64,000 nt of DNA, from the NCBI RefSeq assembly GCF_055900595.2, contig NZ_CM148325.1; one strand, written 5' to 3'. Positions 49,294 through 53,043 of the stretch are shown here, piece by piece. The notes beneath the pieces were generated by a model that saw only the letters and a program-made list of their open reading frames with translations, had not been told where the DNA came from and ran no database searches. Made by a program: the position numbers and the translations under genes. Numbering within the stretch: the first letter of the stretch is position 1; each line of letters begins with the position of its first letter.

Positions 49294-50042
49294 TGTCTAT
49301 TGTGATGCAGCTACAGGATGTTGCGGAATCAACCCGCCTTGGGCCGCTTTCTGGCGAGGTTCGGGCTGGGGAGATCCTACATCTGGTGGGGCCGAATGGC
49401 GCGGGTAAGAGTACCTTACTGGCGCGAATGGCCGGAATGACCAGCGGTAAGGGAAGCATTCAGTTCGCGGGGCAACCACTGGAAGCATGGTCCGCAACAA
49501 AACTCGCGCTGCATCGCGCCTATCTTTCACAACAACAGACGCCACCGTTTGCAATGCCGGTCTGGCACTACCTGACACTGCATCAGCACGATAAAACGCG
49601 TACCGAACTACTGAATGATGTCGCAGGGGCGCTGGCTCTTGATGACAAACTCGGACGTAGCACCAATCAACTTTCCGGCGGCGAATGGCAACGCGTACGT
49701 CTTGCTGCGGTGGTGCTGCAAATCACACCACAAGCCAATCCCGCAGGCCAATTACTACTTCTTGATGAGCCTATGAACAGTCTTGATGTTGCGCAACAAA
49801 GTGCGTTAGACAAAATTCTGAGCGCGCTGTGTCAGCAAGGACTGGCGATTGTGATGAGCAGTCACGATCTCAACCACACCTTGCGTCATGCGCATCGGGC
49901 GTGGTTGCTAAAAGGTGGAAAAATGCTGGCCAGTGGACGCAGAGAAGAGGTGCTCACGCCGCCAAATCTGGCGCAGGCCTATGGGATGAATTTTCGCCGT
50001 CTGGATATCGAAGGTCACAGAATGCTGATTTCGACCATCTGA
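49293..50042 (+). CDS. btuD: vitamin B12 ABC transporter ATPase
   Basis: 249 aa, Walker [10 protein letters not shown], signature LSGGEWQRV; start overlaps btuE stop. Confidence 0.95.
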
Positions 50043-50119
50043 TTTCATTAGTATCTTGAAAATCGGGTAATTACGACGCTAAATTAATGCAAGAATAAAA
50101 AACAGAGGAACCGTACGGA

Positions 50120-50584
50120 ATGCGTTTCTGCCTTATTTTGATCACAGCACTGTTTCTGGCCGGGTGTAGCCACCATAAAGCACCGCCGCCAAATGCCAGA
50201 CTTTCTGATTCGATTACCGTTATTGCCGGTTTGAACGACCAGCTACAGAGCTGGCATGGTACGCCGTATCGTTATGGTGGCATGACGCGGCGCGGTGTGG
50301 ACTGTTCGGGGTTTGTGGTTGTGACGATGCGCGATCGTTTCGATTTGCAGCTGCCCCGTGAAACCAAACAACAAGCCTCTATCGGCACGCAAATTGATAA
50401 AGACGAGTTGCTGCCTGGTGACCTGGTCTTTTTCAAAACGGGCTCCGGACAAAATGGTTTGCATGTAGGTATTTACGATACCAACAACCAATTTATCCAC
50501 GCCTCTACCAGCAAGGGAGTGATGCGTTCCTCACTCGATAATGTCTATTGGCAGAAAAATTTCTGGCAGGCGAGACGAATCTAG
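50120..50584 (+). CDS. nlpC: NlpC/P60-family lipoprotein peptidase
   Basis: 154 aa, lipobox LAGCS, catalytic Cys in GVDCSGFV. Confidence 0.9.
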   Translation: MRFCLILITALFLAGCSHHKAPPPNARLSDSITVIAGLNDQLQSWHGTPYRYGGMTRRGVDCSGFVVVTMRDRFDLQLPRETKQQASIGTQIDKDELLPGDLVFFKTGSGQNGLHVGIYDTNNQFIHASTSKGVMRSSLDNVYWQKNFWQARRI

Positions 50585-50830
50585 TATGTCGAAAAATGGA
50601 CGGCGATGATACATCTCCGTCCATTTACTCCTGAATACAGTAGTATTTTACAGACAAAAATACCGTATATGGATTATTCGTTTATAATCAGGATAATCTA
50701 ATAAAAGGACCCCTGAAAAAGTGGTTAACATGGAACAAATGAAAGTTACTCCTTCTGTAATTGTTATGTCTTATGGCCTCATCCCTTTTAGCCGGATACT
50801 GAAAAACATCCTTCGAGAGGGACGGTTACC

Positions 50831-51544
50831 ATGAAGATTTTTTTGGAGAATCTTTATCATTCTGATTGCTATTTCCTGCCGATAAGAGATAATCAGCAAG
50901 ACCTTGTCGGCGTTGAGTTAATTACCCATTTCTCCAGTGAAGATGGTACGGTTCGTATACCGACGAGTCGGGTTATAGCGCAACTTACCGAGGAGCAACA
51001 TTGGCAATTATTTTCTGAGCAGTTGGAATTGCTAAAATCATGCCAACACTTTTTTATTCAACATAAACTCTTTGCCTGTCTTAATTTAACCCCACAAGTG
51101 GCTACTTTATTATTAGACAGGGATAATTACGCGGGCGAACTATTAAAATATCCGTTTATTGAACTGTTGATTAATGAGAATTACCCGCATCTCGATGAAG
51201 GAAAAGATAATCGCGATCTTTTGTCCTTATCGCAAATGTATCCCCTTGTGTTAGGTAATTTGGGCGCAGGCAATAGCACAATGAAAGCGGTTTTTGATGG
51301 TCTTTTCACCCGCGTCATGCTGGATAAAAGTTTTATTCAGCAACAAATCACGCATCGCTCCTTCGAACCGTTTATTCGTGCGATCCAGGCGCAAATTTCC
51401 CCATGTTGCAATTGCATCATCGCGGGGGGCATTGATACGCCAGAAATAATGGCACAGATTATCCCCTTTGATTTCCATGCTCTCCAGGGATGCCTGTGGC
51501 CTGCCGTTCCTGTAAATCAGATAACGACGTTGGTTCAGCGATAA
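50831..51544 (+). CDS. ydiV: degenerate-EAL-domain anti-FlhD4C2 factor
   Basis: 237 aa, synteny. Confidence 0.9.
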   Translation: MKIFLENLYHSDCYFLPIRDNQQDLVGVELITHFSSEDGTVRIPTSRVIAQLTEEQHWQLFSEQLELLKSCQHFFIQHKLFACLNLTPQVATLLLDRDNYAGELLKYPFIELLINENYPHLDEGKDNRDLLSLSQMYPLVLGNLGAGNSTMKAVFDGLFTRVMLDKSFIQQQITHRSFEPFIRAIQAQISPCCNCIIAGGIDTPEIMAQIIPFDFHALQGCLWPAVPVNQITTLVQR

Positions 51545-51567
51545 CCCTCCTGTTTGCTGGTGTTTAA

Positions 51568-53043
<1,476 letters not shown>

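Follow-up and report, generated by a model that had tools for sequence, protein, structure and literature searches.

A conserved reading frame that stops at the start of ydiV in the Enterobacteriaceae: very probably a regulatory leader that is translated

YdiV (RflP), the anti-FlhD4C2 factor, renders the motility of Salmonella nutrient-dependent and bistable and controls flagellar expression in pathogenic E. coli. Its translational control has long been noted, and the papers cited here offer no mechanism for it. In a 64,000-nucleotide (nt) stretch of E. coli DNA (NCBI RefSeq assembly GCF_055900595.2, contig NZ_CM148325.1; hereafter the window, to whose positions our coordinates refer), the genes are ordered btuD-nlpC-ydiV(rflP)-selO, and an upstream open reading frame (uORF), short and on the strand of ydiV, ends on the ydiV start codon. 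Is this frame fortuitous, or does it serve the synthesis of YdiV? Here, our comparative analysis revealed that the open reading frame (ORF) itself, its start position, its length, its freedom from stops and its stop/start overlap with ydiV are conserved, while the peptide is not. The frame is very probably, as judged from these sequence comparisons, a translated regulatory leader that controls YdiV synthesis, and it provides a concrete, mutable element for the control noted above.

In Salmonella, nutrients reduce YdiV, an effect that an earlier study put down chiefly to post-transcriptional control; the translation of YdiV is regulated by CsrA, but nutritional control remains without CsrA (PMC4173784). 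Expression of stm1344 is reportedly lowered by CsrA (PMC5622320). In laboratory strains of E. coli, rflP is reportedly inactive through attenuated translation (PMC7157525, citing Wada 2012). Our literature search returned no paper with both ydiV and uORF, and the hits for ydiV with "leader" were irrelevant except for a list of CsrA targets. No prior annotation, family model or paper describing a ydiV leader ORF was found.

The reading frame before ydiV and its conservation

The elements of the locus that concern us are the following:

50831..51544, plus strand: ydiV (rflP), encoding the anti-FlhD4C2 factor; the regulated main ORF (from the ORF list and protein comparison)
50739..50834, plus strand: conserved leader ORF of 31 codons, MKVTPSVIVMSYGLIPFSRILKNILREGRLP, the TGA stop included in the span; the ATG stands exactly 92 nt before that of ydiV
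50721..50738, plus strand: in-frame 5' extension, not conserved in the family, holding ATG 50730 and GTG 50721 as possible alternative starts
50831..50834, plus strand: ATGA stop/start overlap of the uORF and ydiV

The ydiV product has 237 amino acids and 98% identity to the E. coli protein. Between the nlpC stop codon (50582-50584) and the ydiV ATG (50831) lies a spacer of 246 nt, for which the RefSeq records of three E. coli genomes, including MG1655, carry no annotated feature. A preliminary description of the window had reported a 34-codon frame (MEQMKVTPSVIVMSYGLIPFSRILKNILREGRLP) opening at ATG 50730, whose TGA (50832-50834) overlaps the ydiV ATG (50831-50833) as ATGA; this layout is read directly from the sequence and the ORF list, and the accompanying remark that the ribosome-binding site of ATG 50730 is weak also holds (the ATG is preceded by AAAAAGTGGTTAAC). 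Two other in-frame starts are available, GTG 50721 (37 codons) and ATG 50739 (31 codons, MKVTPS...), and the uORF of MG1655 is identical base for base to that of the window; ATG 50739 corresponds there to 1792112 on the minus strand, and ATG 50730 to 1792121. In 5000 dinucleotide-preserving shuffles of the spacer alone, an ATG-initiated ORF of at least 31 codons ending at the ydiV ATGA arose with P = 0.026, a result that is suggestive and not decisive by itself. The decisive evidence is comparative.

For the comparison, 20 diverse YdiV proteins were aligned and 80 ydiV loci were taken, each from a different species, across about 20 genera of Enterobacteriaceae. The later addition of S. enterica subsp. 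enterica and E. fergusonii brought the number of unique leaders to 70. A short ORF was present in the 5' leader, on the strand of ydiV, in 77 of 79 species. At nearly all loci its ATG lay exactly at -92 from the ydiV ATG (consensus taaaAaGGaAaaaATGAAa), the position of 50739 in the window and not of 50730. The frame proposed in the preliminary description as coupled to ydiV is therefore the conserved one, with its conserved start at the 31-codon ATG 50739 rather than at the 34-codon ATG 50730. In the 70 unique leaders, which come from about 20 genera, this start is ATG, or TTG in Buttiauxella. The preliminary description had also named conservation of the frame in other Enterobacteriaceae as a check on its claim, and 71 of the 75 unique 96-mers proved open in this frame all the way from -92 to ydiV, with 9 stops in the uORF frame as against 210 and 106 in the other two plus-strand frames.

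Stop codons are avoided in this frame specifically. As a null model, each alignment column was permuted among the sequences, so that the conservation of every column is retained. The 68 unique leaders with a start at -92 contain no stop in the uORF frame, where 32.7 ± 4.8 are expected, and zero was attained in none of 2000 shuffles. Stops in frame +1 matched expectation (141 versus 140.8), and those in frame +2 were somewhat low (86 versus 104.1 ± 6.3). The same held for 19 leaders that are mutually less than 70% identical, which have no uORF-frame stop against 10.0 ± 2.7 expected (shuffle minimum 2), with both other plus-strand frames in agreement with the shuffles. When all six frames were counted over the 70 leaders, the uORF frame was the sole frame open in all of them (0 stops; 147 and 90 in the other plus-strand frames, 60-189 in the minus-strand frames).

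Both ends of the frame are conserved as well. The uORF stop falls on the ydiV start in all 70 leaders, as ATGA in 59 and as TAATG or TGATG in 11 (where the last A of the stop is the A of the ydiV ATG), and the only leader whose ydiV begins with ATGG uses TGATG. Of the 70, 58 have an A-rich second uORF codon (AAA, AAG or AAC). From the uORF AUG to that of ydiV, the 70 unique leaders all measure exactly 92 nt, with zero in-frame indels. Among 5417 E. coli genomes, 4301 match the window at 99% or better over the 96 nt of the uORF, compared with 15 genomes for the adjacent 96 nt upstream and none for the next 96 nt of ydiV, all counts that vary with the reference strain chosen.

Because frame-specific stop avoidance, a fixed start and the stop/start overlap recur across the family, the uORF is not fortuitous; the preliminary description had allowed that it might be, a reservation that the absence of stops against some 33 expected does not sustain. 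On these comparative grounds, we regard translation of the ORF, and its maintenance by selection, as highly likely; it is a candidate for genome annotation.

The fixed length is a separate observation: it is kept despite a freely varying peptide and no shared predicted RNA structure, and an open ORF alone needs no fixed length.

Some Escherichia loci stand out individually. In E. coli GCA_903972355.1 (contig CAJCNO010000226.1), a 1-nt insertion late in the uORF (...ILKNHPSRGTVT-MKIF...) fuses the uORF in frame to YdiV; the called protein has 274 amino acids and its 90%-identity cluster 14 members, and since the contig is only 6.4 kb long, a sequencing error is possible. In NZ_AP026118.1 and NZ_CP067342.1, matches are limited to the last 55-63 nt of the leader or reach only 86% identity, which suggests a rearranged or introgressed nlpC-ydiV spacer in a few E. 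coli strains. At only 49% identity, the YdiV of E. fergusonii is further from the E. coli protein than those of Citrobacter and Salmonella are; its leader (L085) nonetheless retains the ATGGAACACATG arrangement, the 31/34-codon uORF and the ATGA overlap.

Selection on the frame and on the peptide

If the frame is kept open, is its peptide the reason? Column entropies at the three codon positions were nearly even in the uORF (1.36/1.39/1.28), in contrast to the first 40 codons of ydiV (0.92/0.71/1.62). Across 29 phylogenetically independent sister pairs, differences at codon positions 1/2/3 numbered 81/99/100 in the uORF and 65/48/207 in ydiV, and codons with a single change were synonymous or nonsynonymous at 45:116 in the uORF and 160:55 in ydiV. 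The synonymous fraction of the uORF is 0.28, where random changes would give 0.24, and third positions carry no excess of differences. The nucleotides are nevertheless constrained, the sister pairs being 0.89 identical in the uORF against 0.77 in the 90 nt upstream, the latter a lower bound since these 90 nt were compared unaligned.

Searches of Pfam and NCBIfam with four versions of the uORF peptide gave nothing reaching cutoff. In a collection of 15 billion sequences, the Salmonella, Enterobacter, Citrobacter and 31-amino-acid E. coli peptides were never called as proteins, and the 34- and 37-amino-acid E. coli forms were called on 29 and 58 contigs, respectively. Per-codon tallies of the leaders showed no repeated codon to be conserved, and hence no run for a regulating amino acid. 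We found no conserved arrest motif in the uORF, and its C-terminal residue is variable (Q 25, P 13, R 13). A terminator scan gave no plus-strand terminator-like site in 50739-50831, and the uORF finishes on the ydiV ATG.

A trpL/pheL-type attenuator was rejected because there is no terminator between the uORF and ydiV and no regulatory codon run. An arrest peptide of the TnaC/SecM/SpeFL type was rejected for its lack of amino-acid constraint and its variable C-terminal residue.

The pattern suggests that translation of the leader is conserved rather than a protein product, as would fit a cis-acting regulatory uORF. Since the peptide sequence is unconserved, we read the frame as a cis-acting leader ORF and not as a small-protein gene.

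Initiation signals, RNA structure and the proposed coupling

How, then, might translation of the leader act on ydiV? Four elements within and just before the uORF bear on this:

50730..50734, plus strand: A-N-GGA motif (ATGGA; GGA at 50732-50734), 4 nt before the uORF ATG; a putative Shine-Dalgarno sequence, a CsrA-type motif, or both
50794..50796, plus strand: mid-uORF GGA, within CCGGAU in E. coli; a GGA occurs at -37 in 56% of leaders
50817..50822, plus strand: ydiV Shine-Dalgarno sequence GAGGGA, within uORF codons 27-29; family consensus GGGGC
50782..50822, plus strand: predicted hairpin burying the ydiV Shine-Dalgarno sequence, UCCCUUUU (50782-50789) paired with GAGAGGGA (50815-50822) in the minimum free energy (MFE) fold

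A GGA lies within -106..-97, recurring at -99, in 99% of the 68 leaders, as AAGGA, ACGGA, ATGGA or AGGGA. E. coli has the weaker ATGGA, whereas a divergent Escherichia lineage (L006) and E. albertii (L007) carry AAGGA; in both of these, the ATG of 50730 reads AAG. An ATG at -101 occurs only where the motif is ATGGA, namely in E. coli, E. fergusonii, Leclercia, Silvania and Superficieibacter. The T at 50731 creates ATG 50730 and at the same time lowers Shine-Dalgarno complementarity (AAGGA to ATGGA). Its distribution marks ATG 50730 most plausibly as a side effect of the N = T form of the A-N-GGA motif; being in frame, it could still serve as a start. The mid-uORF motif reads CAGGAUG, similar to the CsrB repeats, in Citrobacter, Enterobacter, Leclercia and others, and 93% of leaders have further GGA motifs in -150..-120.

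Salmonella (leaders L084, positions 1108-1200, from S. enterica subsp. enterica, and L022) has AACAAGAAAAAUGAUG before the uORF AUG, ends its uORF with UAAUG and not AUGA, and carries a palindromic ACCGGUUCACCGGU hairpin immediately upstream.

The ydiV Shine-Dalgarno sequence has the consensus gcGGGGCtG at -14..-6 (GGGG at -12..-9), and codon 28 of the uORF is GGG in 57 of the 68 leaders. In the E. coli single-sequence MFE prediction, it is paired in a local hairpin of -11.6 kcal/mol with an inner stem GGAU (50794-50797)/AUCC (50808-50811). Other Escherichia, as well as Salmonella and Enterobacter, are predicted to form similar pairings, at positions that are not conserved. This segment is the least accessible of the leader, with a mean predicted unpaired probability of 0.24 (0.16 in E. 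coli) against 0.52 for the uORF initiation region, a comparison that lends weak support because G-rich segments are often predicted to be paired anyway.

Based on these features, we propose that the 31-codon leader ORF (34 codons if ATG 50730 is used) acts in cis and is translationally coupled to ydiV, a mechanism to which we assign a probability of roughly 0.6. Ribosomes would bind where the leader is A-rich, in the initiation region of the uORF (A-N-GGA, 4 nt, AUG AAA); their elongation through the leader would melt the hairpin over the ydiV Shine-Dalgarno sequence; and they would end translation at the UGA, which shares nucleotides with the ydiV AUG. YdiV synthesis would then begin either by re-initiation of the same ribosome or by a new ribosome on the freed Shine-Dalgarno sequence, and YdiV output would be set largely by the frequency of uORF initiation. 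A precedent is idlP-iraD: there, the stop of a leader ORF repressed by CsrA overlaps the start of iraD, whose Shine-Dalgarno sequence is sequestered, and the repression acts wholly via coupling (Park et al. 2017, PMC5574718). As the uORF initiation region of ydiV has a GGA motif such as CsrA binds, this protein and nutritional signals could exert their effect there in the same way. In line with repression by CsrA, deletion of csrA in E. coli raised ydiV ribosome footprints (log2 +1.21) and mRNA (+0.77), both significantly (PMC5694010).

Several observations weigh against this proposal. To begin with, the pattern is broken in 7 of 79 species. In E. albertii (L007), a 1-nt deletion leaves a 25-codon uORF that stops 13 nt before ydiV, and in Leclercia adecarboxylata NCTC13032 a 1-nt deletion in an A-run truncates the uORF. 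In three species, a 1-nt deletion carries the end of the uORF 17-20 nt into ydiV. Enterobacter sp. Bisph1 has lost the uORF ATG and the ATGA too, and the leader of Pseudescherichia vulneris is unrelated to the others. One E. fergusonii assembly (L086) has a uORF truncated by one C fewer in a CCCCC run. Some of these losses are probably homopolymer assembly errors, as is plausible for E. fergusonii because a second assembly (L085) is intact.

The initiation signals and the RNA also hold points on the same side. The 4-nt spacing from GGA to the uORF AUG is short for a Shine-Dalgarno sequence, and Salmonella is the sole lineage without a GGA before that AUG. The Shine-Dalgarno sequence of ydiV is itself well spaced, so that independent initiation is possible and uORF translation could equally inhibit. 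RNAalifold predicted no shared pairs among 24 diverse leaders, and the fold of the E. coli leader is no stabler than its shuffles (z = -0.45). On these two results a conserved, riboswitch-like structured RNA was rejected. Apart from SOX2OT_exon2, a chance hit (18.1 bits, gathering score 45, E = 0.44), an Rfam scan of 49500-52000 returned nothing. As no conserved structure was found, sequestration of the ydiV Shine-Dalgarno sequence rests on single-sequence predictions.

Published data sets add to the counterweight. The Salmonella CsrA target list gives a single ydiV site, around the ydiV Shine-Dalgarno sequence and not at the uORF (PMC4066749). In E. coli, the gain in ydiV translation efficiency upon csrA deletion (+0.44) is not significant, and crosslinking and immunoprecipitation sequencing (CLIP-seq) has no listed CsrA peak at ydiV (PMC5694010). 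The readable parts of the supplements of Stringer 2021, Venturini 2020 and Baek 2017 hold no uORF entry when searched by gene names, coordinates and peptide strings; these are not true negatives, the Stringer table being in BL21 coordinates and ydiV barely expressed in laboratory E. coli.

Could the uORF be translated and yet repress ydiV? Its ribosomes, passing over the ydiV Shine-Dalgarno sequence and AUG, would occlude independent initiation, and the more the uORF is translated, for instance in rich medium, the lower YdiV would be. Such an arrangement is consistent with the conserved Shine-Dalgarno sequence that ydiV retains inside the uORF and with the low YdiV level seen when nutrients and translation capacity are high (PMC4173784), and the stop-avoidance signal fits either sign of regulation equally. 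However, the exact stop/start overlap in 70 of 70 leaders is the layout of positive coupling, as in operons and idlP-iraD, and the predicted burial of the ydiV Shine-Dalgarno sequence would favour a need for unfolding. Furthermore, E. coli, with its weaker ATGGA, has a poorly translated ydiV, contrary to what repression predicts. We therefore consider a repressive uORF unlikely.

Alternatively, uORF ribosomes might protect the transcript by blocking Rho-dependent termination or RNase attack in the nlpC-ydiV spacer, in which case the effect on YdiV would come via the mRNA level instead of re-initiation. In Salmonella, transcription from the nlpC promoter also takes in ydiV, which makes the leader an intercistronic spacer (PMC3367168); the E. 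coli csrA deletion shifts ydiV mRNA more clearly than translation efficiency; and iraD mRNA decays faster once coupling is lost. Protection, though, needs neither a stop placed exactly on the ydiV AUG nor a fixed 92-nt length, and it would leave about 155 nt before the uORF still untranslated. This alternative appears distinctly unlikely.

A passive origin, in which the leader nucleotides are kept for protein or small RNA sites or for promoter elements and the ORF goes untranslated, would account for the even conservation across codon positions and for the conserved GGA motifs, and would agree with the absence of the uORF from the readable ribosome-profiling tables, which are not true negatives. 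Yet the column shuffle preserves just this column conservation and still predicts 33 stops, and 10 when the 19 divergent leaders are taken by themselves, where none is seen; the other frames behave as expected, and the representatives are less than 70% identical. Binding sites alone would also leave unexplained why the ATG, AAA at the second codon and a stop placed on the ydiV AUG are conserved and why indels of 3n are completely absent. A passive by-product is thus very improbable.

Finally, the uORF might encode a small protein that acts in trans with a function of its own. Several genera show a hydrophobic N-terminal half (MKLILLKS..., MKVTPSVIVMSYGLIPF) and gene callers occasionally predict the two longer E. 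coli forms, but the 45:116 ratio of synonymous to nonsynonymous changes reveals no purifying selection on amino acids, no Pfam or NCBIfam family matches it, and the peptides of different genera can barely be aligned. Such a protein is extremely improbable.

Activation through the coupled leader ORF thus remains our preferred reading, and a further step can be offered tentatively: the leader ORF may be the missing sensor in the nutritional control of motility. If so, the weak ATGGA together with a stronger hairpin over the Shine-Dalgarno sequence would explain why rflP is translationally silent in K-12 and active in Salmonella, and the strict 92-nt length would be a geometric requirement of the switch.

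Two further elements lie upstream in the spacer:

50683..50688, plus strand: TATAAT hexamer, possibly a ydiV-proximal -10 as judged from its sequence; the leader would be about 136 nt long if it is used
50596..50624, plus strand: terminator-like hairpin after the nlpC stop, with a 13-bp stem followed by TTT only (from sequence inspection)

A TATAAT is found at the equivalent spacer site in Salmonella and Citrobacter amalonaticus. The motif CAGGAUAA lies at the presumptive 5' end. The hairpin after nlpC has one C/T mismatch in this strain and a perfect stem in MG1655, and it was missed by the consensus terminator scan.

Comparison with known systems

Classical translational coupling was reportedly described for the trp operon by Oppenheim and Yanofsky in 1980, with ATGA and TGATG junctions. 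The ydiV leader resembles such operon junctions in its 4-nt ATGA or 5-nt TAATG/TGATG overlap, at which termination would be followed by re-initiation. It differs in that the upstream partner has only 31 codons and a product without amino-acid selection, and would serve only to bring in ribosomes or to exert regulation.

Leader-peptide attenuators and arrest peptides such as trpL, pheL, mgtL, tnaC and speFL likewise place a short ORF in the leader of the gene that they regulate. The ydiV uORF differs from them in having no regulatory codon run, no arrest motif and no terminator/antiterminator pair, the last because the uORF ends on the ydiV start and leaves no room for one between the two.

A Ribo-RET study of unannotated translated small ORFs in E. 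coli notes that regulatory ones can function though their proteins do not (Stringer et al., 10.1101/2021.07.02.450978). The ydiV uORF is likewise intergenic, on the same strand as a gene and immediately before it; most of those small ORFs are unconserved, unlike the ydiV uORF, which is conserved family-wide and does not appear in the readable part of the table.

The closest likeness is to idlP-iraD. In both systems, a short leader ORF on the same strand has a stop that overlaps the start of the main gene. The Shine-Dalgarno sequence of the main gene lies in structure, as shown for iraD and predicted for ydiV; a GGA overlaps the initiation region of the leader ORF; and the main genes are regulators repressed by CsrA. 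The differences are that the ydiV case is known from sequence only, with no CLIP peak in E. coli and a Salmonella CsrA site at the ydiV Shine-Dalgarno sequence, and that the ydiV ORF is kept in about 20 genera at a fixed 92 nt. The best reading of this comparison, by analogy, is that the ydiV leader ORF belongs with the coupled regulatory uORFs of the idlP-iraD type; if that is true, ydiV would be a second natural example of regulation through a coupled leader ORF of this kind.

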